64,000 nucleotides of DNA from Dehalococcoidia bacterium (GTDB taxonomy: Bacteria > Chloroflexota > Dehalococcoidia > Lucifugimonadales > UBA2985), in contig DAOUJW010000017.1 of the NCBI GenBank assembly GCA_034422115.1, forward strand, positions 119,379 to 183,378. Direction: 5' to 3'. The position numbers and the translations under genes are program-made. This document shows, one piece after another, positions 9,395 through 29,300 of the stretch. Position 1 is the stretch's first letter, and every line of letters begins with the position of its first letter. The notes beneath the pieces were generated by a model that was not told where the DNA came from, did not search any database, and was given only the letters and a program-made list of their open reading frames with translations.

Positions 9395-10189
9395 ATGGTA
9401 GTCCGCAGCTATGAGATGTTGAGCCTTGAGCGAACAGGCCATGTCGCCATCATCACCCTGAACAGACCGGAGAAGCTGAACGCCCTCAATCCGCCTTTGG
9501 TTGCCGAGTTCCACGCGGCCCTGGACGAGATCGCGTCCGAAGAGGACACCATCCGGGCGGTGATTGTAACCGGAGCGGGCAGGGGGTTCTGCTCAGGAGC
9601 GGATGTCAACCGGCAGCTGGAGTCTTTGCAGGGCACAGCCGCTCCCACACCTGAGGGCCCGGGTATCACGGCATTGGCCCCCCACCTGCAGCGCATCCCG
9701 CAGCCTGTGATCGCCGCCATAAACGGCGTGTCCGCAGGGGCGGGCTTTGGCGTGGCCCTGGCCAGCGACATCCGCATCGCCTCTGAAGCCGCCAGGTTCT
9801 CCTGCATATTCGTCAAGCGCTCCCTGGTGCCGGATACGGGCTCCTCCTTCACGATGCTTCGGCTGCTTGGCAAGGGACTCGCCATGGAGATGGCCCTTAC
9901 CGGAAACCTCTACGATGCGCAGTGGGCCATGGAGAAGGGCCTTGTGAACAAGGTCGTTTCTGCCGACAGGCTCATGGATGAGGCGATGGAGCTGGCCCAG
10001 ACCATAGCGTCCAACCCGCCGATATGCGTTCGCTCCATCAAGCAGCTCATCCACGGCCACGACGGCGACCTGGAGCCCGTGCTGAACCTGGAGAGCGCGG
10101 CCAACGCTCCCGCCTACGGCAGCGAGGACAGGCTGGAGGCCGTCAAGTCCTTCCTGGAGAAGAGGGATCCGGTCTACAAGGGACGATAG
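9395..10189 (+). CDS. Enoyl-CoA hydratase/isomerase (crotonase) family protein
   Basis: VAIITLNRPEKLNAL, GAGRGFCSGADV and AAINGVSAGAGFGVALASDIRIA. Start moved to ATG 9395, which is preceded by GTAGGAGGTG. Confidence 0.9.
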   Translation: MVVRSYEMLSLERTGHVAIITLNRPEKLNALNPPLVAEFHAALDEIASEEDTIRAVIVTGAGRGFCSGADVNRQLESLQGTAAPTPEGPGITALAPHLQRIPQPVIAAINGVSAGAGFGVALASDIRIASEAARFSCIFVKRSLVPDTGSSFTMLRLLGKGLAMEMALTGNLYDAQWAMEKGLVNKVVSADRLMDEAMELAQTIASNPPICVRSIKQLIHGHDGDLEPVLNLESAANAPAYGSEDRLEAVKSFLEKRDPVYKGR

Positions 10190-10328
10190 ATAAGACCAGT
10201 ACAGGACCCTCCTCCGCCGGGCGCGCCTTGCTTAAGGCCTGTCCTGGACCGCGAGGAGGGTTGTCCATTTTTAAGCCCGGCGCTTTCCCGCACGCACAGG
10301 GCGCAATTCATAGTAGGAGGTATCTGTC

Positions 10329-11138
10329 ATGGCATCGGGTGATTACACTGTCCTGGACCTGGAGAAGACGGGCCACGTTGCCACCATAACCCTCAATCGC
10401 CCGGAGAGGCTGAACGCCCTGAACACCACCCTGTCTTCCGAGTTCCACAACGCCCTGGACGATGTCGCGGAAGACCTTGATATCCGCGCCCTGATCATCA
10501 CCGGGGCTGGCCGCGGCTTCTGCTCCGGCGCCGACGTGGGCCAGATGCAGAACACACTTGACGGCCAGGGAGGGGGCCCGCCGCCCCTTCAGCGCATTGG
10601 GATGCCCGCGGGCGTGTCCGAGCTGACGCCTCACCTTCGCCGGATTCCCCAGCCCGTCATTGCCGCGGTGAACGGCGTGGCCGCGGGCGGTGGGCTTGGC
10701 GTCGTACTTGCCAGCGACATCCGCATCGCCTCGGAGGCGGCCAGGTTCAGCTGCGTATTCATTCGTCGCTCCCTGACCCCGGACAGCTCCGTGTCCTACA
10801 CCCTCCCGCGGCTGGTGGGGTACGGCATTGCTATGGAGATGGCGCTCACGGGCAACGTGTACGACGCGCAGTGGGCCCTTGAGAAGGGGCTTGTGAACAG
10901 GGTGGTGCCCGCCGAGAGGCTTCTGGATGATGCGATGGAGCTTGCCCAGACCATAGCGTCCAACCCGCCGATTGTTGTCCGCTCCACCAAGAAGCTCCTC
11001 TACAGGCACGACGTGGACCTGGAGGAGATATACCCCGTGGAGCGCGCCGCCAACGGCCCCTCCGCCAACAGCGACGACCGGAAGGAGGCTGTCCGCTCCT
11101 TCATGGAGAAGCGCCAGCCCGTCTACAAGGGGTGGTAG
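10329..11138 (+). CDS. Enoyl-CoA hydratase/isomerase family protein (tandem paralogue)
   Basis: Same motif set (ITLNRPERLNAL, GAGRGFCSGADV, AAVNGVAAGGGLG). RBS GTAGGAGGT upstream. Collinear with the 9395 gene. Confidence 0.9.
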   Translation: MASGDYTVLDLEKTGHVATITLNRPERLNALNTTLSSEFHNALDDVAEDLDIRALIITGAGRGFCSGADVGQMQNTLDGQGGGPPPLQRIGMPAGVSELTPHLRRIPQPVIAAVNGVAAGGGLGVVLASDIRIASEAARFSCVFIRRSLTPDSSVSYTLPRLVGYGIAMEMALTGNVYDAQWALEKGLVNRVVPAERLLDDAMELAQTIASNPPIVVRSTKKLLYRHDVDLEEIYPVERAANGPSANSDDRKEAVRSFMEKRQPVYKGW

Positions 11139-11148
11139 CGACATGTAA

Positions 11149-11185
11149 CTCGGCTAATTCAAAATCTGAATTTGAATTAGCCGAG
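11149..11185. terminator. Perfect 15-bp inverted repeat between convergent genes (hairpin, no U-tract)
   Basis: CTCGGCTAATTCAAA-ATCTGAA-TTTGAATTAGCCGAG, 11 nt after the crotonase stop. Confidence 0.5.
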
Positions 11186-11310
11186 TGCGAGTAAGCTCAA
11201 TGTATGTGAGGCTGGGCATACCAAGTCAATAGAGTCAACCCTTACGCCTACTCATAAACCGTGACATGGTTTCCGCTAGCGCCGGTGAAAAGCTCGCGTT
11301 GGAATGAACC

Positions 11311-11523
11311 TCAGCGTTCCTGAAACTCATTCCAGTCTATTCCCAGTTGCCTGATTGCCGAGCGCAGAGTCCCGATTTTTAGATCGCGCCCTCCCTGGTC
11401 AGGCAGTATGGCATCCTGTTGCGCTTCCGGGTTAAACCATTTTCTGTGAGAACCGCCTCCGCGCCTGGGAATCTCGTAGCATCCGAGCTCTGTCAGCTTA
11501 CGAGCGACATCCTTGTATGTCAC
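11311..11523 (-). CDS. hicA: HicA-family mRNA-interferase toxin
   Basis: 70 aa. ...LGCYEIPRRGGGSHRKWFNP... matches the HicA (YcfA) fold motif. It overlaps hicB by 4 nt. Confidence 0.85.
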   Translation of the reverse strand: MTYKDVARKLTELGCYEIPRRGGGSHRKWFNPEAQQDAILPDQGGRDLKIGTLRSAIRQLGIDWNEFQER

Positions 11524-12057: not shown

Positions 12058-15000
12058 TTGTCAGAGGTAACCTTGTTCACCCACCTGCACAACCACACCG
12101 AGTACAGCCTCCTGGACGGCCTCAGCCGCATCAGCCCTATGGTGCAACGCGCCAAAGAGCTGGGCATGGACTCCCTGGCCATCACCGATCATGGCGGGCT
12201 GTACGGCGCCATCGAGTTCTATACGGAGTGCAAGGAAGCCGGTATAAAGCCCATTATCGGGCTGGAGGCGTACCTGGCCCAGGAGAGCCGCCACAGGAAG
12301 GGCTCGGCGGACAAGAGCCCCTACCATCTCCTTCTGCTGGCCAAGGACATGGAGGGATACCAGAACCTGCTCAAGCTGTCCTCCCTGTCGCACCTGGAGG
12401 GTTTCTACTACAAGCCCCGCGTCGACAAGGAGCTGCTGGAGGTTCATAGCGGAGGGCTGATCGCCTTTTCCGGCTGTCCAACCGCCGAGGTCCCGAGGCT
12501 GCTAATCGAAGGCAACACTCAGGAGGCCAGGGACGCCGCTCTCTGGTACAAGAACACCTTTGGGGATTTCTACCTGGAGCTTCAGCGACACGCAGACGTC
12601 CCGGAGCTTCCCAGGCTGAACGAAGAGCTCCTGAAGCTGGGCCAGGAAACGGGCCTGCCGCTGGTGGGCACCAACGACTGCCACTACATTCACCAGGAAG
12701 ACGCCTCCATACAGGACATCCTAATCTGCATCCACACCAACACCAACATCCACGACGACAAGCGCCTGAGAATGACCGACGACTCCTACTACCTCAAGAG
12801 CCCCCAAGAGATGGAAGAGCTATTCCCAGACGTGCCGGAAGCTGTCGCCAACACCCGTCGTATAGCCGACATGTGCCACCTGGAGTTGGACTTCAGCCAG
12901 CTTCGGCTGCCGGAGTACAAGACCCCGGACGGCGTCAGCTCGGACGAGTACCTGGCTCGTCTCTGCTACGAGGGAATGCAGAAGCGCTACGGCAACCCCT
13001 CGGACGTGGTGCGTCAGCGTCTGGAGTACGAACTGGATGTTATAAGGAACACCCAGTTCAGCAACTACATCCTGGTGGTGTGGGATATAGCCGCCTTTGC
13101 ACGGCAGAGCGGCATTATCTTCGGCGTACGGGGCAGCGCCGCCGCAAGCGTGGTGCTCTACTGCCTGGGCGTGACGGACATAGAGCCGCTCCAGTACAGG
13201 CTTGTTTTTGAGCGGTTCCTGAACCTGGAGCGTCGTGAGATGCCGGACATCGACATGGACTTCCAGGACGACCGCCGCGACGAGGTGATAGCCTACGTGC
13301 GGCGGAAGTACGGCGGCGACCACGTGGCGCAGATCATCACCTTCGGGACTCTGGGCCCCAAGGCAGCCATCCGCGACACGGGCCGCGCCCTTGGCATGGC
13401 CTACTCCGACGTCGACCGCGTTGCAAGGCTCATCCCCTTCCGCGTCCACTCCCTTGAGGAGGCGGTGGAAGGCACTGCGGAGCTGAAGGAGATATACGAG
13501 GCGGACGAGACCCTGAAGGACCTTGTGGACAAGGCCAAGCGTCTGGAGGGGGTTGCCCGCCACACAAGCACCCACGCCGCGGGAGTGGTCATCTCCAAGG
13601 AGCCGCTGACGGAGTACGTCCCATTGCAGCGCCCCGTCCGCAGCGACTCTGCCGAGGACATGGCCATGACCCAGTTCCCAATGGACCCCATCGCCAAGCT
13701 GGGCCTCCTGAAGATGGACCTGCTGGGGCTGACCAACCTGACCATACTGGAGCAGGCGCGGCAGATGGTGACAACCCGTCGTGGAGTCAACCTGGTATTC
13801 GAAGAGATACCCCTGGACGACGAGAAGACCTACGCCCTCCTGTCGTCCGGCGAGACAACGGGGGTGTTCCAGCTGGAGAGCGCCGGGATGAGGCGGTACG
13901 TGAAGAAGCTGATGCCCAACTCCCTGGGAGACGTGGCTGCGATGATAGCCCTCTATCGCCCGGGGCCGATGGAGCACATCGACACTTTCATTGACGCCAA
14001 GCATGGCCGTGGTTCCATAAGCTACCCTCACCCGATGCTCAAAGACATCCTTGAAGAGACCTACGGAGTCATCGTCTACCAGGACCAGGTGCTTCTGATT
14101 GCCCAGGCCTTTGCGGGCTATACCCTGGGAGAGGCGGACGTGGTGCGCAAGGCGATGGGCAAGAAGATTCCGGAGGTCATGCGGGACGAGCGTGAGAAGT
14201 TCGTGCAGGGCGCACTGGCTAAGGGGTTCTCCCAGGAGCTTTCCGAGGAGGTGTTCCAGCTTGTGGAGCCCTTTGCCGGCTACGCGTTCAACAAGGCCCA
14301 CAGCGTGAGCTACGCCCTGATTGCCTACTGGACGGCCTACTTCAAAGCGAACTACCCTGAGGAGTACATGACGGCGCTGCTGAACGCCCACGCCGGGCAG
14401 GCGGAGAAGGTGGCCGGCGCGGTCACAGAGTGCCTTCAGCTTGGCATCCCGGTGCTCCTGCCAGACGTGAGCCGCAGCGAGGTGGACTTCTCCATAGACA
14501 TCAACTCGGAGGGCAAGCCGTCCATCAGGTTCGGGCTGGCCACGGTCAAGAACGTGGGGGCCTCCGCGGTCGCGCCCCTTGTCGAAGAGCGAAAGAAGGC
14601 CGGTCCCTACACGTCTTTAGAGGATCTGTGCCACAGGGCCGACATGCGCGGCGTGAACCGCCGGGCGCTGGAAAGCCTGGCAAAGGTGGGCGCTCTGGAC
14701 TCGCTCGGTCCGAGAGGCCAGCTGCTGGCCAGCGCCGACCGCATTCTGGCCATGGCCCAGCGAGAGGCCAAGCTGAAGGACTCCGGCCAGTCTACCATGT
14801 TCGACCTGTTCGGAGAGTCAGTAGCCGCGCCCGTAGCCGCCCTGGAGCTTGAGGAGGGTGAGGTGCTCCAGCAGGAGAAGATGGCATGGGAGCGAGAGCT
14901 TCTGGGCACCTTCATCTCGGAGAACCCCTGGAGTGAGGTGGCGCTGAAGGCCAAGTCCTACGCCATTATTTCCAGAAACGACATCGATACCGAAATGGTC

Positions 15001-15768
15001 GGGGAGAGCGTGACCATTGTGGGCCAGATATCCACACAGAGGATCGGCCTCACCCGCGAGGGCAAGACGTTCGCAGCCGTCGGCCTGGATCTCATGGGAG
15101 GCAGCCTGGAGGTAATGGTGTGGCCCAACGCCTATGAGCGCACCCAGGACCTGTGGTACGAGGGCAGCCTGGTTGAGGTGGTGGGCAAGATACGACAGAG
15201 AGACAACGAGCTATCGCTTCACTGCGACGCTGCCAAGCTCTACCAGATAGAGGAGCAGGATGAATCTCCTCAACCGGGGGAGCAGGCGCCGGTCGTTGAC
15301 CAGCCCAGGGCAGAAGCCGCTCCGGAGCAGGAAACTGGCAGCCAAGACGCCGCGCCAGCGATCCAATCGGTCGCTGAAAACGGCGCGTCCCATGCCCCGG
15401 ATGCAGGAGAAAACGGGGCGTCATCCGGCGACCATGCGGCGCTGAACGGCGCGTCGGAGTACGCCAACGGCAAGAGCCAGGAGAACGGGGCGCACGCAGC
15501 CACCTCTCAAAAGCTGTGGATAAGCCTGGAGGAGTCCAGCAACCCCGGGCAGGACGAGCACCTGCTGAGAGAGGTGGTGAAGCTGCTGCTCAACTACCCC
15601 GGCGACTGCCCGGTGGCCCTGAAAATCAAGACCAACGGCAAGCTGGTAAAGGTAGACCTGCCCGTGGCCCCCGTTGCCTACTGCCAGGAGCTGCACAACG
15701 ACCTGACGGAAATGGTCGGAGAGAGTGGGATTGAGATGGAGGGTGACTTCGCCAGCTTGGTGGTGTAG
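12058..15768 (+). CDS. dnaE: DNA polymerase III alpha subunit with an atypical low-complexity C-terminal extension
   Basis: PHP-domain N-terminus FTHLHNHTEYSLLDG, polymerase core (GLLKMDLLGL, FQLES.GM), OB fold near residue 1000. The start could be TTG 12058 or TTG 12073 (AGAGG RBS). Confidence 0.95.
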   Translation: MSEVTLFTHLHNHTEYSLLDGLSRISPMVQRAKELGMDSLAITDHGGLYGAIEFYTECKEAGIKPIIGLEAYLAQESRHRKGSADKSPYHLLLLAKDMEGYQNLLKLSSLSHLEGFYYKPRVDKELLEVHSGGLIAFSGCPTAEVPRLLIEGNTQEARDAALWYKNTFGDFYLELQRHADVPELPRLNEELLKLGQETGLPLVGTNDCHYIHQEDASIQDILICIHTNTNIHDDKRLRMTDDSYYLKSPQEMEELFPDVPEAVANTRRIADMCHLELDFSQLRLPEYKTPDGVSSDEYLARLCYEGMQKRYGNPSDVVRQRLEYELDVIRNTQFSNYILVVWDIAAFARQSGIIFGVRGSAAASVVLYCLGVTDIEPLQYRLVFERFLNLERREMPDIDMDFQDDRRDEVIAYVRRKYGGDHVAQIITFGTLGPKAAIRDTGRALGMAYSDVDRVARLIPFRVHSLEEAVEGTAELKEIYEADETLKDLVDKAKRLEGVARHTSTHAAGVVISKEPLTEYVPLQRPVRSDSAEDMAMTQFPMDPIAKLGLLKMDLLGLTNLTILEQARQMVTTRRGVNLVFEEIPLDDEKTYALLSSGETTGVFQLESAGMRRYVKKLMPNSLGDVAAMIALYRPGPMEHIDTFIDAKHGRGSISYPHPMLKDILEETYGVIVYQDQVLLIAQAFAGYTLGEADVVRKAMGKKIPEVMRDEREKFVQGALAKGFSQELSEEVFQLVEPFAGYAFNKAHSVSYALIAYWTAYFKANYPEEYMTALLNAHAGQAEKVAGAVTECLQLGIPVLLPDVSRSEVDFSIDINSEGKPSIRFGLATVKNVGASAVAPLVEERKKAGPYTSLEDLCHRADMRGVNRRALESLAKVGALDSLGPRGQLLASADRILAMAQREAKLKDSGQSTMFDLFGESVAAPVAALELEEGEVLQQEKMAWERELLGTFISENPWSEVALKAKSYAIISRNDIDTEMVGESVTIVGQISTQRIGLTREGKTFAAVGLDLMGGSLEVMVWPNAYERTQDLWYEGSLVEVVGKIRQRDNELSLHCDAAKLYQIEEQDESPQPGEQAPVVDQPRAEAAPEQETGSQDAAPAIQSVAENGASHAPDAGENGASSGDHAALNGASEYANGKSQENGAHAATSQKLWISLEESSNPGQDEHLLREVVKLLLNYPGDCPVALKIKTNGKLVKVDLPVAPVAYCQELHNDLTEMVGESGIEMEGDFASLVV

Positions 15769-19476: not shown

Positions 19477-19929
19477 CTATCCCAGGTGGACTATTTCTAT
19501 GTCACCCCAACTTCTCTGGAGATACTCAGCGACAAGGCGGCGGTGACACTGGTCTGGCTTCTCCTCACTGCACAGCAGGCAAGCGTTGGCTATGGTGCGC
19601 TTAAGCCCCATTTTCTCAATCCGACGCTGCTCCATAAGACCCAGGAACTCGCTTTCATAGGTCTCCCAGTCCTTGTGGCCTTTACGGTATGCGTCCAGCA
19701 ACTCGCGGGTTGGCGCAAGCTCCGGTAGATGTACGTACTTAATTCGGCAGATCTTGCTCAGGAAGTACTCCAGGTCTTCCTTCTTGGTGAAACCCGCCAG
19801 CTGGGACATGTTGCTCAGGCGGACGTCTACCACCCGCTTAGCGCCTGACCTGCGCAGCAGTTCAAAAAAATCTGAAGCGGATTTCTTCGTGAACCCGATA
19901 GTATAGACTCTCAATATCCGTCCCACCAC
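19477..19929 (-). CDS. DUF488-family protein (short paralogue)
   Basis: 150 aa. VYTIGFTKKSASDFFELLRRSGAKRVVDVR...LLCSEEKPDQCHRRLVAEYL is the DUF488 pattern (IG-[HF]-[ST]...VDVR...C.E..P..CHR). Confidence 0.8.
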   Translation of the reverse strand: MVGRILRVYTIGFTKKSASDFFELLRRSGAKRVVDVRLSNMSQLAGFTKKEDLEYFLSKICRIKYVHLPELAPTRELLDAYRKGHKDWETYESEFLGLMEQRRIEKMGLKRTIANACLLCSEEKPDQCHRRLVAEYLQRSWGDIEIVHLG

Positions 19930-20546
19930 TCGGTTTCGGTATTCTGTGGACTATTGGTGACGTACGCCACCTTCTTCTCCTGGATCATGAGGGCGTCTGA
20001 GATGACCTCGGACCTGGAACGGAACAGGTCGCCATATTGCGGCAATTTCAAAGCGTCTACCAGCCGACTCATAGTGGTGTCGTGATTTTCTAGGGTTCCG
20101 TCTGCAAGGATGTGTTCAACCATTAGGTCCCGTTCCACAAGCGCTCTAGCAATCAACAACGTGCGATGGCAGTCAAGGGGCTCTTTTTCCGTACACATAA
20201 GAGCAATGCGGCGCTCGTCTGCGTTGCGAACCAGGTACGCCAGTCCGTCTTCAAACATATCCGCGTTTGCCAGACGCTCGTAAAGCACACGCCCATTGGC
20301 GTCGTAGTACGAGCTGTCCGAGGGTCTGCCTCCAAGCTCCGCGCCCAGAAAAACGTAGCCAATCCCGGCCGACTCAAGGGCCGTCTCTAGGCGGCCAAGA
20401 TTGAATTGCGTTGTATAACGGCTGTACGGCGCAGACCGGACGTCCACCACCTCATCCACTTTGTGCTGCTTCAAAAGGGTAATGAATTCCTCAAGTGAAT
20501 TGTTAGAGTGTCCGATGGTGAATACAGGGTGCTGAGTTTTGTTCAT
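19911..20546 (-). CDS. DUF488-family protein (long paralogue)
   Basis: 211 aa. VFTIGHSNNSLEEFITLLKQHKVDEVVDVRS...ALMCTEKEPLDCHRTLLIARAL. It overlaps the next DUF488 gene by 19 nt. Confidence 0.8.
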   Translation of the reverse strand: MNKTQHPVFTIGHSNNSLEEFITLLKQHKVDEVVDVRSAPYSRYTTQFNLGRLETALESAGIGYVFLGAELGGRPSDSSYYDANGRVLYERLANADMFEDGLAYLVRNADERRIALMCTEKEPLDCHRTLLIARALVERDLMVEHILADGTLENHDTTMSRLVDALKLPQYGDLFRSRSEVISDALMIQEKKVAYVTNSPQNTETEWWDGY

Positions 20547-20560
20547 TATCTTTGTAACTC

Positions 20561-21232
20561 TTAGGGATCTATGATGGCTGCTATGAGCTTGTACACATAA
20601 TCATAGAACTGACCTCCCATACTTACGGTTAGGATTACCTCGCCTTTGGGATTGCCAGCAGCGACATCATTAAAGTATTTTGTGGAATAAGCAAGATCTG
20701 TAATACGAAGTGCATATTCCTGCCCAGCGTACTGAAAATGTCCCCGCAATCTCATTGCATTTCTGGCCCATGATGTTTCCTCTGATACCTCCAGCGAGCT
20801 AACTTTAATCAATCGCAGGGAGTCCTTTAGAGATTTGGCATATTCGAAAGGGATACGATCGTTCCTTCCATTGGAGCTCTCGTATCCGCTCAACCAGAGT
20901 GGCTCTGGCGTGTGGACGAACCTTTCAAGTTGATTAGGCGAGACCCGATTAATTTTCTCCCAGTAATAGTCTGGATAAATAAGCCAGTTCTCTGTTTGGT
21001 GGTATTCTGGTTGAGCCCTCAGAACCGGTACATCCATTACATCAAGAACCTCAGGCTCACTTCCGTCTTCATACAGACGCTCTCTCCCTACCCCGCCCTC
21101 CTCTCCTGTACCTATCGGCCTCACCCACTGACCTACCTGCGCTCCGGGCAACAACTCTCTCCCAGCTATGCAGCGCCCGCCGGGCTTGTAAGAATTTGCC
21201 AAACACACAATGCGTTTATATTCCCAGGCCAT
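20561..21232 (-). CDS. Uncharacterised 223-aa protein, first gene of the DUF488 operon (possibly two OB-like halves)
   Basis: ORF with N-terminal IVCLANSYKPGGRCIAGRE...WVRPIG and a second beta-rich half ...LRLIKVSSLEV...LRGHFQYAGQEYALRITD. AT-rich: 24 of 60 G+C in 20581-20640 by my count. I cannot assign a characterised family. Confidence 0.6.
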   Translation of the reverse strand: MAWEYKRIVCLANSYKPGGRCIAGRELLPGAQVGQWVRPIGTGEEGGVGRERLYEDGSEPEVLDVMDVPVLRAQPEYHQTENWLIYPDYYWEKINRVSPNQLERFVHTPEPLWLSGYESSNGRNDRIPFEYAKSLKDSLRLIKVSSLEVSEETSWARNAMRLRGHFQYAGQEYALRITDLAYSTKYFNDVAAGNPKGEVILTVSMGGQFYDYVYKLIAAIIDP

Positions 21233-21372: not shown

Positions 21373-22104
<732 letters not shown>

Positions 22105-22117
22105 TGAGGTCGGTAGT

Positions 22118-23581
22118 ATGAGCCGGCTGAAGGGCAGAAACGTCGTATCCGTTGACGACCTCTCGGTCGGCGACGTTGAGTCGATATTCGAGACCGCGGA
22201 CGCCATGCGGGAGAACCGGCAGGCGTACTTTGGCAGCGCGACCGGCAGGATTGCCGCCACGCTGTTCTACGAGCCAAGCACCAGAACGCGGCTGTCCTTT
22301 GAGGCTGCAATGCAGCGACTGGGCGGCGGAATCATATCCACACCGGATATGGGAGCGTCCTCCGCGGTCAAGGGTGAGTCCCTTGCAGACACGTCCAGGG
22401 TGGTTGGCGCATACGCCGACGTGCTGGTGGTGCGTCATCCCTGGGAGGGCGCCGCCAGGCTAGTTGCTGAGTATTCTCCCGTGCCGGTCATAAATGCCGG
22501 AGACGGCAGCCACGAGCATCCCACCCAGACCCTGTGCGACTTGTACACGCTTCGGGGCCATCACGGAACTCTGAAGGGCCTCAAGGTTGCCCTCTGCGGT
22601 GACCTGCTTCACGGGCGGACTATACACTCTCTGGCCTTTGCGCTGGCGCGTTTCGGGGCAAACGTCATTTTCGTTCCGGGAGACGGCAACGAGATGCCGG
22701 ACTACGTTCTTCGCAGGCTGCAACGGGACTACCGCGCCCAGATCAGAAGGGAGCGGCTGGGGTTCTTGAGCGCCCTCTTCGACGATTCGCCGGCGGGTGA
22801 AGAGGCGGAGACCGTCGATGCCATTTACATCACGCCTACGGAGCCGCACCAGCTGGCTATGTCCTCCATTGAGGGCACCAAGGTGGAGTTCCAGGTCGGC
22901 AGCGACGAGGCGCTTTCGATATACGTGACAAGGCGCCAGAAGGAGCGAGGCAGCGCTGCAAGCGAGTCCGACCGCTACCCCACCCTGACGGCCAAGACCC
23001 TGAGGGCCAGGCAGTTCAAGGACATCTCCATACTCCACCCGCTACCCCGCGTTGATGAGCTCAGCCCGGAGGTGGACGAGGATCCCAGGAGCCTCTACTT
23101 CCATCAGGCAGCCCTGGGCATCCCAGTCAGAATGTCCCTTCTGTGGCACATACTCGGCGGCGACGAGGAGGCGGACGCGGGCCCAATGACGGAGCTTGGA
23201 GAGCCGAAAGCCCTGGTCTACTCCAGGCCGGGCTTCGACTGCCTTAACGCGACGTGCGTCGGCAACCAGGAGAGGCAGTTTGCGCGTCCTCGCTTTGAAA
23301 TCGTCAGGGACCCGGACTACAAGCTGCGGTGCCTCTACTGCGACCACGAGACTCCCGCCGCCTACGCTGGCAACACCGAGTCGCGGTTCTACTACCCGTC
23401 TCATCTGCTGGACAGGTTTGTTCCGCCGGTCAGCCTGGAGCACGTCAGATTCTTTGACTCGTCGGATGGCGCGGAGGCGGCGGGATTCAGGCGTGCGTCA
23501 GAGAAGTGGGGCAGCTACCAGCCCAGGGAAGACTCAGACAGGAGGCACTGGATAGATATGGTGTCCAGCATGACCAGATGA
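22118..23581 (+). CDS. pyrB: Aspartate carbamoyltransferase catalytic chain with an internal insertion and a fused C-terminal PyrI-like zinc domain
   Basis: STRTRLSFE, HPTQ and LHPLPRVDE are the ATCase catalytic signature. The protein is 487 aa against roughly 310 usual. The tail contains FDCLNATC...(21 aa)...LRCLYC, the 4-Cys layout of the PyrI zinc domain. Confidence 0.9.
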   Translation: MSRLKGRNVVSVDDLSVGDVESIFETADAMRENRQAYFGSATGRIAATLFYEPSTRTRLSFEAAMQRLGGGIISTPDMGASSAVKGESLADTSRVVGAYADVLVVRHPWEGAARLVAEYSPVPVINAGDGSHEHPTQTLCDLYTLRGHHGTLKGLKVALCGDLLHGRTIHSLAFALARFGANVIFVPGDGNEMPDYVLRRLQRDYRAQIRRERLGFLSALFDDSPAGEEAETVDAIYITPTEPHQLAMSSIEGTKVEFQVGSDEALSIYVTRRQKERGSAASESDRYPTLTAKTLRARQFKDISILHPLPRVDELSPEVDEDPRSLYFHQAALGIPVRMSLLWHILGGDEEADAGPMTELGEPKALVYSRPGFDCLNATCVGNQERQFARPRFEIVRDPDYKLRCLYCDHETPAAYAGNTESRFYYPSHLLDRFVPPVSLEHVRFFDSSDGAEAAGFRRASEKWGSYQPREDSDRRHWIDMVSSMTR

Positions 23582-24924
23582 AGCTACTAGTCAAAGGCGG
23601 CCGCATTATCGATCCCCTCATGGGATTGGATTACGTTGGTGACCTGTTAATCGAAAATGGGAGGATAATCGGGCTGGAACGCAGCATCGACAAGCCGGAC
23701 GGCGCGCAGGAGATAAGGGCCTCGGGCCTGGTGGTATGCCCGGGCTTCATAGACCTTCACGCCCATCTCCGTGAGCCGGACCCGGAGGACAAGGAGACCA
23801 TCGCCACGGGGACCCGGGCCGCCGCCAGAGGGGGGTTTACCACGGTTTGCGCTATGCCCAACACCAGGCCGGCCATGGACAGCCCGGAGGTGATTGCGCT
23901 GGTTCTGCGCAAGGCAAGGGAGGAGGGCAGCGTGAAGGTGCTGCCCATCGGCGCTGTGACTGTGGGACGGGACGGCGACGTTCTGACGGATATGGACGCT
24001 CTGGCCGTGGCCGGAGTCATCGGCTTCAGCGACGACGGCAGCCCGGTGTCCAAGGACCACATTATGAAAGAGGCCCTTATTCGAGCAACGGCCCTGGGCC
24101 TCCCGATTATGAACCACTGCGAAGACTTGAGCCTCTCCCGCGGCGGGGTAATGAACGACGGCGTGGTGGCGCAGAGCCTGGGGCTGCCGGGAGTCCCCGC
24201 TTTGGCAGAGGAGTCTATGGCGCTCCGGGACATCAACCTGGCCGAGGCCACGGGAGGCCGTCTGCATCTGACGCACATGAGTACCGCCGGCAGCGTAGAG
24301 ATAGTCCGCATCGCGAAGGGGCGTGGCCTGAGGGTAACCGCGGAGGCAACTCCGCACCACCTCACTATCACGGAGGAGTGGGCGATTCCCGGGAAGGCGC
24401 GAGGGGGACGGACGGACGCCGTAACTCCCGGCGAGTACAACACCGCGGCAAAGGTGAACCCCCCGCTGCGTACGGAAAAGGACGTGGAGGCCGTGGTGCA
24501 GGCGCTGAGGGACGGCGTTATCGACTGCATAGCCACGGACCACGCGCCGCACACCCAGGGGGACAAGGAGTGCAGCTTTGAGGAGGCGGCCTTCGGCATA
24601 AGTGTGCTGGAGGTGGCGCTGGGCTCCGTGATGTCCCTGGTACACAACGGAAGGCTGGACTTGCCAACAGTGATAGAAAGGCTGACGGTGGCGCCGGCCC
24701 GCGTTCTCGACCTGCCGGACCGATTCCCCGGCTCCCTCAGAACAGGGTCTCCGGCGGACGTGACCATCTTTGATCCGCAGGCGGAGTGGGTGGTGAACGC
24801 CGCCGACTTTGTGTCCAAGGGAAAGAACACGCCGTTGGATGGGGCAACCCTCAAGGGCAGGGTGCGCGCCACCATCGTGGACGGCTCAATAGCATATAGA
24901 GATGAGGTGTTAATCGTTGACTAA
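23578..24924 (+). CDS. pyrC: Dihydroorotase
   Basis: MKLLVKGGRIIDP...PGFIDLHAHLREPD...ATDHAPH. ATGA overlap with the pyrB stop. Confidence 0.92.
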   Translation: MKLLVKGGRIIDPLMGLDYVGDLLIENGRIIGLERSIDKPDGAQEIRASGLVVCPGFIDLHAHLREPDPEDKETIATGTRAAARGGFTTVCAMPNTRPAMDSPEVIALVLRKAREEGSVKVLPIGAVTVGRDGDVLTDMDALAVAGVIGFSDDGSPVSKDHIMKEALIRATALGLPIMNHCEDLSLSRGGVMNDGVVAQSLGLPGVPALAEESMALRDINLAEATGGRLHLTHMSTAGSVEIVRIAKGRGLRVTAEATPHHLTITEEWAIPGKARGGRTDAVTPGEYNTAAKVNPPLRTEKDVEAVVQALRDGVIDCIATDHAPHTQGDKECSFEEAAFGISVLEVALGSVMSLVHNGRLDLPTVIERLTVAPARVLDLPDRFPGSLRTGSPADVTIFDPQAEWVVNAADFVSKGKNTPLDGATLKGRVRATIVDGSIAYRDEVLIVD

Positions 24925-26008: not shown

Positions 26009-26070
26009 CGCGCTAAGATGATATGCCATTATGGTGTCGTAAAAACGCGTCAGGAAGGTACGGTAGCTGT

Positions 26071-26310
26071 ATGAGAACGACACTCAACATAGACAGCAAA
26101 CTCCTTGAAACTGTAATGGAAGCCACGGGAGAGAAGACGAAAAGCAGGGCGGTGAATGCCGCTCTGAAGGAGTACGTACGTCGCAAGCACGTCCAGGAGC
26201 TGATCGACTCCTGGGGCAAGATCATAGTGGACGACTACAGCGAGGAGTATGATCGCTTGGATAGAGAACGGCAGGCATATCTTGAGTCTCTGAGGGATGG
26301 CGCCGCGTGA
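26071..26310 (+). CDS. vapB: VapB-type (DUF2191-like, RHH-type) antitoxin, orphan
   Basis: MRTTLNIDSKLLETVMEATGEKTKSRAVNAALKEYVRRKHVQELI is the typical type II antitoxin N-terminus. It sits in the 355-nt carA-carB spacer. Confidence 0.75.
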   Translation: MRTTLNIDSKLLETVMEATGEKTKSRAVNAALKEYVRRKHVQELIDSWGKIIVDDYSEEYDRLDRERQAYLESLRDGAA

Positions 26311-26363: not shown

Positions 26364-29300
26364 GTGACCCAAAAACCCTCCAAAGTCCTGGTTGTAGGAT
26401 CAGGCCCCATCATCATTGGGCAGGCGGCGGAGTTCGACTATGCGGGCACCCAGGCATGCAAGGCCCTCAAGGAGGAGGGCGTCACAACGGTGCTGGTCAA
26501 CTCCAACCCCGCCACCATTATGACCGACGAGGGCATAGCGGACATCGTCTACATAGAGCCGCTGACGGTGGACGTCATCTCGCGCATCATCGAGCGGGAG
26601 AGGCCCCAGGGCATACTGCCGACCTTGGGCGGCCAGACCGGCCTCAACCTTGCCGTAGCCCTGGCCGACGCCGGTGTCCTGGACAAGTACGACGTCCGGC
26701 TCCTGGGCACGCCTCTGGAGACCATTCGCAGCGCGGAGGACCGTGAGCTCTTCCGCGACCTCCTCGTGGAGATTGGAGAGCCGACCCTGCCCAGCGACAT
26801 CGCTGAGTCGATGGACGACGTGCATCGCATCATGGCTGAGATGGGTCTGCCCCTGGTCATTCGCCCCGCCTTCACCCTTGGAGGTTCCGGCGGAGGCATC
26901 GCCAACACGCTGGAGGAGCTTGAGGCGGTCGCCAAGAGCGGGCTGGCCGCCAGCCCCATAAACCAGATTCTGCTGGAGCGTTCCCTGGTGGGCTGGAAGG
27001 AGATTGAGTACGAGGTGATGCGGGACGCCGCGGACAACTGCATAACCGTGTGCAACATGGAGAACCTGGACCCGATGGGCGTGCACACGGGAGACAGCAT
27101 CGTCGTGGCGCCAAGCCAGACGCTCACGGACAAGGAGTACCAGATGCTCCGCTCCGCGAGCCTGAAGATCATCCGCGCCCTGGGCATCGAGGGCGGCTGC
27201 AACGTGCAGTACGCCCTCAAGCCGCACGACATGGTGCAGGAGACGCTCCCCGGGGCTTGGGAGGCGGACAGCCCCTACTACGTCATAGAGGTGAACCCCC
27301 GCGTCAGCCGCAGCTCCGCCCTGGCCAGCAAGGCGACCGGATATCCCATAGCAAGGGTGGCAGCGAAGATAGCCGTGGGCAAGCGGCTGGACGAGATCCC
27401 CAACGCCGTTACCCAGCGTACCCTGGCGGCCTTTGAGCCGGCCCTGGACTACTGCGTGGTCAAGATACCGCGCTGGCCCTTCGACAAGTTCGCGGCGGGA
27501 GACCGCAACATCGGCACTCAGATGAAGGCCACCGGCGAGGTGATGGCAATCGACCGCTCCTTTGAGGCGGCGTTCCAGAAGGCGGTGCGCTCCCTGGAGG
27601 TTGGAGGCCACACGCTCCTGTGGGAGGACAGGGAGTGGCAGGACGGCGGCGGCCCGCCTCTGGACAGCCTTCCGCTGTATCCAACGGACATCCGGCTGTG
27701 GGCGCTCATGGCGGCCCTGCGCCGTAACGTCGCCCCCAATGACGTGGCCAGGAACACGGGCATCGACCCCTGGTTCCTGTACCGGCTCTCAAACATCGTG
27801 GATATGGAGAGGCGACTCTTGGAGGAGGGCCTCACGCCTCGCCTTCTGAGGGACGCCAAGCGCCTGGGCTTCTCGGATGTGCAGATAGCAACGCTGGGAG
27901 ACCGCCTGCCGGACCAGGTGCGCCAGCTGCGTCGTGACTGGGGGGTAAGCCCCGTGTACAAGATGGTGGACACGTGCGCAGCGGAGTTCGAGGCGGCCAC
28001 ACCCTACTTCTACAGCACCTATGAGCAGGAGAACGAGGCGGCTTTCCTGGAGGGGGCCAAGGCCGTGGTCATGGGCAGCGGGCCCATTCGGATAGGGCAG
28101 GGGATTGAGTTCGACTACTGCTCCGTCCACGCTGCCTGGGCACTCCAGGAGGAGGGGGTCAAGAGCATCATGGCCAACTCCAACCCGGAGACGGTATCCA
28201 CGGACTTTGACACCAGCGACCGCCTCTACTTTGAGCCGCTGGACGAGGAGAGCGTGCTGGACATCCTGGAGAACGAGGCGGAGGCCGGGGCAGATCCGTC
28301 CCTGTGCCCGCCGTCCATGGTGCAGTTTGGGGGCCAGACGGCCATCAACCTGTCCCAGACCCTGGACAGGGCCGGTATGCCAATCCTCGGCTCCACAGCG
28401 GACGCCATCGACATCGCCTCGGACAGGGGGCGATTCGAGGACTTCCTGGCCCGCCTGGGCATACCCCAGCCTCCGGGAGCCGGCATCACGTCGCTGGAGG
28501 AGGCCCTGAAGGTCGCCGACGGCATCGGCTACCCGGTCCTGGTCCGCCCCAGCTACGTCCTGGGCGGCAGGGCAATGGAGATCGTGCAGAACGCCACTGA
28601 GCTTATTCGCTACGTCACCGCCGCCGCGGAGATCGCCGCGGGTCGTCCCATTCTCATCGACAAGTACCTGAGCGGCCGCGAGGTGGAGGTGGACGCCATT
28701 TGCGACGGCGAAACGGTGTTCATTCCCGGCATTATGGAGCACGTGGAGCGGGCGGGGGTGCACAGCGGCGACTCCATGGCGATTTACCCGGGCGTGACCC
28801 TCACGGAGGAGGAGGTCAACACCCTGGTTGAGCACACGACACGCATAGGGCTGGCGCTGAAGGTGAAGGGGCTGATGAACATCCAGTACGTGATTGTGGG
28901 CGGCAGCCCGTATCGCAGCCCCCAGGCCATGCCGGAGGCCAACGGCGCATCCACGGTGTACGTGCTGGAGGTGAACCCGCGGTCCAGTCGCACGGTGCCC
29001 TTCCTGTCCAAGGTCACCGGAGTCCCGATGGTGAAGCTGGCGACCAAGATCATGCTGGGCAGGACCCTGGCCGAAATGGGGTACGTCGGCGGGCTGTGGA
29101 AACGGCAGAACCTGGTGGCGGTGAAGGCGCCGGTGTTCTCCATGTCCAAGCTGGCCGGGGTGGACACCTACCTTGGGCCTGAGATGAAGTCCACGGGCGA
29201 GGTCATGGGTATCGACACCGACTTCCGGGGCGCGGTCGCCAAGGCGCTGCTGGCGGGAGGTATGCTGTTCCGACCCAACGGCTCCGTGCTCCTGAGCATC

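Follow-up and report, generated by a model that had tools for sequence, protein, structure and literature searches.

Aspartate carbamoyltransferase (ATCase) is a textbook model of allostery. A family review from 2015 recognizes ATCases associated with dihydroorotase (DHOase), ATCases associated with the regulatory chain PyrI, either as a separate chain or fused to it as in Thermotoga maritima, and ATCases that occur as trimers only (PMC4581275). In the Escherichia coli enzyme the zinc domain of PyrI binds the catalytic subunit, and dimerisation takes place through the nucleotide-binding domain, which senses nucleoside triphosphates (NTPs). Removal of the regulatory subunit increases activity and abolishes cooperativity, and the zinc domains have been described as "brake pads" that set the trimer-trimer spacing around the 240s loops (PMC11601545). 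At the interface, regulatory N111 bonds catalytic E109 (10.1101/350173). The PyrB-PyrI fusion of T. maritima is allosteric according to the title of Chen et al. 1998, as cited in the 2015 review (PMC4581275). Here we describe a pyrB gene, hereafter pyrB*, from a 64,000-nucleotide stretch of a Dehalococcoidia bacterium (contig DAOUJW010000017.1; the whole stretch is referred to as the window), which is predicted to encode an ATCase catalytic chain fused to the zinc domain of PyrI, with no PyrI allosteric domain. The combination of a catalytic chain with the zinc domain alone is not among the forms listed in the 2015 review.

A sequence-only reading of the window had described pyrB* as a 487-aa PyrB with intact catalytic motifs, about 45 extra residues in the aspartate domain and about 140 aa past the normal C-terminus, including a PyrI-type zinc domain with its Cys codons between 23240 and 23341. 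It had seen no PyrI allosteric domain and no pyrI in the operon, and it had taken PyrR attenuation to be retained. All of these claims were borne out by the profile searches, alignments and models presented here. The open reading frame (ORF) translates without interruption into 487 aa, and the motifs STRTRLSFE, HPTQ (residues 134-137, on the border of the aspartate-binding domain) and LHPLPRVDE are present and invariant among 87 homologs. Both Pfam domains of the catalytic chain score above their gathering thresholds (PF02729, 158.5 bits; PF00185, 60.2 bits), the match to PF00185 being stretched over 192 residues for a model of 157 positions. The NCBIfam ATCase equivalog TIGR00670 (284 bits against a cut-off of 236.95) and NF002032 (266.8 against 263) are also matched. 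In the alignment to E. coli PyrB, residues S52, T53, R54, T55, S80, K84 and R105 of the latter correspond to S54, T55, R56, T57, S82, K85 and R106, while H134, Q137, R167, R229, Q231 and the HPLPR loop correspond to H134, Q137, R167, R272, Q274 and H307-R311. These substrate-binding and catalytic equivalents are all invariant among the homologs. The nearest solved ATCases are all partnered by PyrI, namely those of Pyrococcus abyssi (E 9e-75), Methanocaldococcus jannaschii and E. coli (structures 1ml4, 2rgw and 1d09), whereas the match to ATCases of the Bacillus subtilis type (3r7d/2at2) is far weaker (E 1e-36) and that to the DHOase-partnered ATCase of Aquifex (3d6n) is distant (E 1e-25).

The canonical ATCase sequence ends at G348 (nt 23161) and is followed by 139 further residues. 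These begin with a linker of 24% mean identity, for which the AlphaFold2 (AF2) prediction, made for a single chain and read through its confidence scores, gives a predicted local distance difference test (pLDDT) below 50 at residues 351-362. Behind the linker, PF02748 (PyrI_C) matches residues 373-411 with 27.6 bits in the whole protein and 29.9 bits in the tail alone, above the gathering threshold of 23.4. The four cysteines C375, C380, C405 and C408, whose codons lie at nt 23240-23341, are invariant in the 87 sequences, and N377 is conserved in at least 90% of them. A profile of residues 352-487 matches the zinc domains of solved PyrI chains with E-values from 6e-8 to 1e-4, and Foldseek aligns the tail model with PyrI chains at probabilities of 0.8-0.95 (root-mean-square deviation, rmsd, about 2.4 Å over 41 columns). 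The Foldseek E-values exceed 0.1 because each subdomain is small. By these profile and fold matches, the C-terminal module is shown to be a bona fide PyrI_C four-Cys domain. Residues 370-465 are modelled confidently in the full-length chain (pLDDT 86-93), and the predicted template modelling score (pTM) of the whole chain, 0.83 despite the disordered linker, suggests a defined placement of the tail on the core in the model. The equivalents of the E. coli interface pair, N377 and E110, are each at least 90% conserved.

The other half of PyrI is missing from the protein. PF01948 (PyrI_N), the nucleotide-binding and dimerising domain, had no match at E-values up to 10, and the regulatory-chain equivalog TIGR00240 reached 16.2 bits against a cut-off of 148.55, with only model positions 105-141, that is the zinc domain, being matched. 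A tblastn search with E. coli PyrI returned nothing but the zinc motif, and a stand-alone pyrI was found neither in the 64-kb window nor within ±10 kb of the fused gene at 36 related loci. Assignment of pyrB* to the T. maritima-type PyrBI was considered and rejected: the corresponding model, NF009916, scored 96.2 bits against a cut-off of 800 and aligned only residues 4-204 to model positions 5-225.

The most likely explanation, to which we assign as a whole a probability of roughly 0.55, is that pyrB* encodes a catalytically competent ATCase of the PyrI-associated (E. coli/archaeal, LHPLPR) lineage, in which the zinc domain of a former regulatory subunit has been permanently captured and the nucleotide-binding allosteric domain has been lost. 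The enzyme would be an active trimer in which the zinc domain docks in cis and helps with stability or assembly. Like PyrI, the tethered domain, holding one zinc per chain, would dock on the carbamoyl-phosphate domain of a catalytic chain within the trimer, where it would serve as an intrinsic clamp, lending stability to the trimer and modulating its kinetics. Such an enzyme would not be under CTP/UTP/ATP control of the PyrI kind, and control of the pathway would therefore fall to PyrR-mediated attenuation.

Compared with the class B holoenzyme (E. coli/archaeal PyrB and PyrI, 2c3:3r2), the pyrB* product shares the catalytic lineage, the four-Cys signature C-x-N-x2-C ... L-x-C-x-Y-C and the N111r/E109c pair, but its zinc domain is covalently attached to the catalytic C-terminus, the allosteric domain is absent, and an insertion and a sunset-like domain (see below) have been added. 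The T. maritima fusion resembles pyrB* in joining a catalytic chain and regulatory-chain sequence, in this order, in one polypeptide; however, it keeps the complete regulatory chain, allosteric domain included. With class C trimeric ATCases of the B. subtilis type, the locus has in common the absence of a PyrI gene and the control of the pyr operon by PyrR and an RNA site, although the catalytic chains are only distantly related and those of class C carry no appended domains. The nearest experimental analogue is reportedly a complex made in the Schachman laboratory around 1991, in which an isolated zinc-domain polypeptide of about 70 aa is said to have bound the E. coli catalytic trimer tightly, altering its kinetics and stabilising it. 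Like the putative pyrB* enzyme, that complex would have consisted of catalytic chains and zinc domains only, but it is described as an engineered, non-covalent assembly of E. coli parts with neither insertion nor sunset-like domain.

The fused architecture recurs in over 230 protein clusters and at 36 genomic loci. The best 120 database relatives are 462-494 aa long and 48-92% identical, and essentially all of them carry PF02748. They sit on contigs of up to 2.9 Mb, of which those that carry a name belong to metagenome-assembled genomes (MAGs) of Chloroflexota/Dehalococcoidia. The 36 loci, obtained from a genome scan, come from Dehalococcoidales and Dehalococcoidaceae bins and from one Poribacteria bin, and they include complete chromosomes, one of which, from Dehalococcoidia, shows 98% identity to the window. 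The sequence-only reading had reckoned with the architecture being a common, already described form. Judged from these matches it is indeed the standard form across Dehalococcoidia MAGs, with a zinc-only version in Poribacteria, but the literature searches found no paper describing a PyrB fused to the PyrI zinc domain alone. Database labels for the fused protein are generic ("aspartate carbamoyltransferase", "catalytic subunit" or "hypothetical"). Pairwise ratios of nonsynonymous to synonymous substitution rates (dN/dS) among close relatives range from 0.06 to 0.18 for the core, 0.02 to 0.22 for the zinc domain, 0.08 to 0.20 for the sunset-like module, 0.03 to 0.28 for the insertion and 0.22 to 1.65 for the linker, showing that the zinc and sunset-like modules are under purifying selection. 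Stand-alone tail proteins were sought as possible intermediates and rejected, the short proteins that match the tail profile being fragments of the fusion at contig ends.

The insertion in the aspartate domain comprises about 49 aa (residues 204-252). It was delimited with phmmer, in which the match to solved ATCases splits into residues 5-202 and 245-347, and with MAFFT, whose alignment has a block of some 50-60 columns behind K205 of E. coli PyrB. The insertion is predicted to fold as strand-helix-strand, just before the segment equivalent to R229/Q231 and the 240s loop. Residues Y237, T239 and Q245 are invariant, and AF2 models 224-228 and 240-256 with low confidence. All fused clades have the insertion at the same site, with a sequence in the Poribacteria clade that differs from that in Dehalococcoidia. 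In the latter, the inserted strand resembles the next native strand (VDAIYITP versus LSIYVTRR; in the related protein P0199, DVLYIAP versus DVIYVTR). An origin by internal duplication is suggestive at best and not significant, as hhalign gave 47% (P 2e-4) over 16 columns only.

Behind the zinc domain, the sequence-only reading had noted a further tail of about 70 aa of unknown function. The tail is present, but it could be identified: by profile and fold comparison it is a metal-free sunset/ADA_N-like domain (residues 413-465) followed by a clade-specific helix (466-487). A profile of residues 412-470 matched 1402 proteins at E ≤ 1e-3 among 1.84 billion representatives, and the sampled top matches beyond the fused-PyrB family were proteins with 2-7 tandem copies of a repeat of about 45 aa, each repeat matching with an E-value of 1e-10 to 1e-14. 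This repeat is known as Ada_Zn_binding in Pfam, where it often follows an SNase domain, and as the sunset domain in NCBIfam, which also holds "sunset domain variant" models for the ribosomal proteins L17, L4, L20 and S2 and for ArfC. Alignment of the ATCase module profile with 23 canonical sunset repeats by hhalign gave 98.9% (E 1.3e-17, 51 columns), and Foldseek placed the tail model on the N-Ada/DNA complex 1u8b (probability 0.96, rmsd 1.5 Å, 46 columns). Positions 86-124 of the tail profile match the Ada N-terminal domain at E 0.03-0.08. The single sequence stays below the cut-offs: NF051437 requires 27 bits, of which the module alone reaches 15.2 and the whole protein 10, and the score for PF02805 is 16.6 bits against 23. 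The metal ligands H17, C21, C49 and C52 of the repeat consensus align to Y426, D432, A460 and K463, so that all four are lost, and the other fused-PyrB clades retain at most the His. The C-terminal extension contains a helix at 478-486 in the AF2 model (pLDDT about 65). The idea that the tail behind the zinc domain derives from a PyrI allosteric domain by circular permutation or shrinkage was rejected, given the 98.9% match to sunset/ADA_N-like repeats and the lack of anything similar to PyrI_N.

Most members of the ECOD ADA_N-like X-group are C-terminal add-ons, and the zinc sites of some have deteriorated, as in RplD and ArfC; the function of these domains is undetermined even in intact members, and ATCase is not among the described hosts (PMC12353581). 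The module in pyrB* agrees with such add-ons (NF051437 and the L17, L4, L20, S2 and ArfC variants) in its size of about 45-50 aa, its C-terminal position on a housekeeping protein and its deteriorated zinc site. It differs in having an ATCase as host and in following a second, intact zinc domain of other origin. Among the canonical repeat proteins (P0121-P0140), up to seven tandem copies were seen, often C-terminal to SNase (thermonuclease) domains, and their N-termini were judged by eye to be hydrophobic, resembling signal peptides or transmembrane segments. In size and in number of repeats, the sunset/ADA_N-like family goes far beyond the few hosts reported in PMC12353581.

Four variants of the fused protein can be distinguished. 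Members of the Poribacteria clade (402-437 aa) end directly after the zinc domain, a sister group (445-455 aa) has the zinc domain and a short sunset-like module, Dehalococcoidales proteins (about 467 aa) have the full sunset-like module, and in the window's clade (about 487 aa) the terminal helix is present as well. Because the Poribacteria clade has the zinc domain only, the PyrB-zinc fusion presumably came first. The probable order of events, as read from these architectures, would be fusion of pyrB and pyrI, loss of the allosteric domain, giving the Poribacteria form, and finally acquisition of a sunset domain, followed by decay of its metal site, giving the Dehalococcoidia forms.

Table 1. 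Features of pyrB* and of the adjoining pyr operon, with positions in the window.
Feature	Position	Strand	Evidence or remarks
PyrR-binding RNA element (attenuator leader), upstream of operon	21399..21514	+	Rfam RF00515
pyrR (PyrR/uracil phosphoribosyltransferase-type regulator)	21514..22104	+	Pfam Pribosyltran E 1e-20, UPRTase match
Fused pyrB* ORF	22118..23581	+	487 aa + stop; ATCase, linker, PyrI zinc domain, sunset-like domain, C-terminal helix
Carbamoyl-phosphate-binding domain, residues 7-146 (STRTR 54-58, S82, K85, R106-H107)	22136..22555	+	PF02729 E 1.6e-46
Aspartate-binding domain, residues 153-344 (R167, R272, Q274, HPLPR 307-311)	22574..23149	+	PF00185 E 3e-16
Insertion of about 49 aa in the aspartate domain, residues ~204-252	22727..22873	+	Gap in match to solved ATCases; alignment to E. 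coli PyrB
Flexible linker, residues 348-372	23159..23233	+	Low identity, low pLDDT, weak constraint
PyrI-type zinc domain, residues 373-412 (C375-x-N377-x2-C380 ... C405-x-Y407-C408)	23234..23353	+	PF02748
Degenerate sunset/ADA_N-like domain, residues 413-465	23354..23512	+	Profile search, hhalign, Foldseek
Clade-specific C-terminal extension, residues 466-487	23513..23578	+	~487-aa clade only; conserved W479
pyrC (dihydroorotase; MKLLVKGG...)	23578..24924	+	Pfam Amidohydro_1 and DHOase

Several points weigh against the explanation of pyrB* as a passively stabilised trimer. The insertion and the sunset-like domain are strongly conserved, which hints that they do more than stabilise passively, the absence of pyrI applies to the 64-kb window and to ±10 kb at the 36 loci, and for what an isolated zinc domain does to the catalytic trimer the explanation draws on the reported Schachman complex. 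The sunset-like domain is expected to pack on the zinc domain, giving one compact unit, and together with the insertion beside the 240s loop it would be the best candidate for a contact between trimers or with a partner. Their strong conservation suggests that insertion and sunset-like domain may have an additional role in trimer pairing, partner binding or ligand binding.

Trimer pairing could go as far as the zinc and sunset-like tail replacing the whole PyrI dimer, with the sunset-like domains and/or the helix and the insertion pairing across two trimers. The enzyme would then be a homohexamer of holoenzyme-like geometry with homotropic cooperativity and no nucleotide effectors, a fourth quaternary class of ATCase that has no counterpart in the 2015 classification (PMC4581275). 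Consistent with this are the "brake pad" role of the E. coli zinc domains around the 240s loops, the position of the insertion next to the 240s-loop segment and its co-occurrence with the tail in every clade, and the sunset-like domain being as constrained as the core. However, the Poribacteria clade keeps zinc domain and insertion while having no sunset-like domain, and nothing indicates that ADA_N-like domains form dimers (PMC12353581); we regard this arrangement as unlikely. A broader formulation, which we hold equally tentatively, is that the Dehalococcoidia and Poribacteria enzymes might represent a fourth architectural class, in which the covalently attached zinc domain of PyrI brings two trimers together in a homo-oligomer, in concert with the insertion beside the 240s loop and whether or not the metal-free sunset domain is present, so that cooperativity or a new effector input would be achieved without a nucleotide-binding regulatory chain.

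Alternatively, the sunset-like domain might be a new effector sensor that signals through the zinc domain. By analogy with N-Ada, which contacts DNA phosphates, it could bind a nucleotide, a phosphate-rich metabolite or a nucleic acid, and would thus provide an allosteric input unlike that of PyrI. The homology to the DNA-binding N-Ada fold, the association of canonical sunset repeats with nucleases and ribosomal proteins, and the strong purifying selection on the domain agree with such a role. Against it stand the loss of all four metal ligands, including the methyl-acceptor Cys of Ada, the undetermined function of ADA_N-like domains even where these are intact (PMC12353581), and the existence of a zinc-only clade that does without the domain, which together make a sensor distinctly improbable.

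The gene order of the operon is PyrR RNA site, pyrR, pyrB*, pyrC, carA, a VapB-like ORF and carB. The RNA site matches RF00515 over the full model (1-115) with 54.2 bits (E 5e-6), a borderline pass of the gathering threshold of 54. The true start of pyrR is probably ATG 21514, because the mechanically called GTG start at 21478 overlaps the RNA element. The pyrB* start codon, 13 nt past the stop of pyrR and with a GAGG sequence about 9 nt ahead of it, agrees with the N-termini of the homologs. At its other end, the pyrC ATG at 23578 overlaps the pyrB* TGA (23579-23581) in an ATGA junction, which fixes the pyrB* reading frame at the 3′ end and implies translational coupling of the two genes. The mechanical ORF list puts the start of pyrC at GTG 23506, 72 nt too early. 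Among the 36 related loci, pyrR is located upstream of the fused pyrB in 31, and the gene directly downstream is pyrC in 25 and carA in six, at a distance of no more than about 190 nt; in three loci the fused gene lies outside any pyr operon. Those three (L020, L022 and L025) are from MAGs labelled "bacterium", with the match at 10001-11431, and, in contrast to every other locus, have no pyrR, pyrC, carA or carB within ±10 kb of pyrB*. The stop-start overlap with pyrC and the frequent adjacency of the two genes could indicate that the tail is a docking device for dihydroorotase, in an ATCase-DHOase complex similar to the Aquifex/Pseudomonas type, and ATCase-DHOase dodecamers are a known class (PMC4581275). 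This is very unlikely, as the downstream gene is not always pyrC and some fused genes lie outside any pyr operon, the core is of the PyrI-partnered type with only the distant match to the Aquifex enzyme mentioned above, and the PyrI zinc domain has no known contact with DHOase.

That the fusion is an assembly chimera or a missed frameshift or stop before a pyrI remnant, or that the tail is a functionless decaying relic, has in its favour the poorly conserved linker and otherwise prior plausibility only, and it is effectively refuted, because the uninterrupted ORF recurs in hundreds of independent assemblies from different studies, complete chromosomes among them, with four invariant Cys, purifying selection on both tail modules and the reading frame fixed at the ATGA junction; the sequence-only reading had raised such an artefact, and the check proved negative.

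Some further genes around the operon deserve mention. An orphan VapB-like antitoxin ORF (26023-26310, + strand; PF09957, E 4e-13) lies between carA and carB, with no space for a VapC partner before the carB start at 26364. Among relatives the carA-carB gap measures anything between about 30 and about 1500 nt, which makes it look like a variable insertion spot. Immediately ahead of the operon, three divergent genes on the − strand (19477-21232) code for a protein with a DuOB (dual OB) domain (PF22557, E 7e-60) and for a pair of DUF488 proteins, of which one belongs to the "active DUF488-N3" subclade. Further upstream of the region studied here, a 1236-aa ORF is found at 12058-15768 (+ strand).

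As to its significance, pyrB* is a widespread natural form of ATCase under selection, and of PyrI it retains just the zinc "brake-pad" half. The family would allow a direct test of the effect of the zinc domain itself on the stability, kinetics and assembly of the catalytic trimer, and likewise of a re-partitioning of regulation to PyrR attenuation. With it, a metabolic enzyme joins the few housekeeping proteins in which a degenerate sunset/ADA_N-like domain is present. Because annotation pipelines label the protein generically, this peculiarity goes unnoticed when the metabolism of Dehalococcoidia is reconstructed. If the enzymes did turn out to form a fourth class, the "docking" and "sensing" halves of PyrI would be evolutionarily separable.

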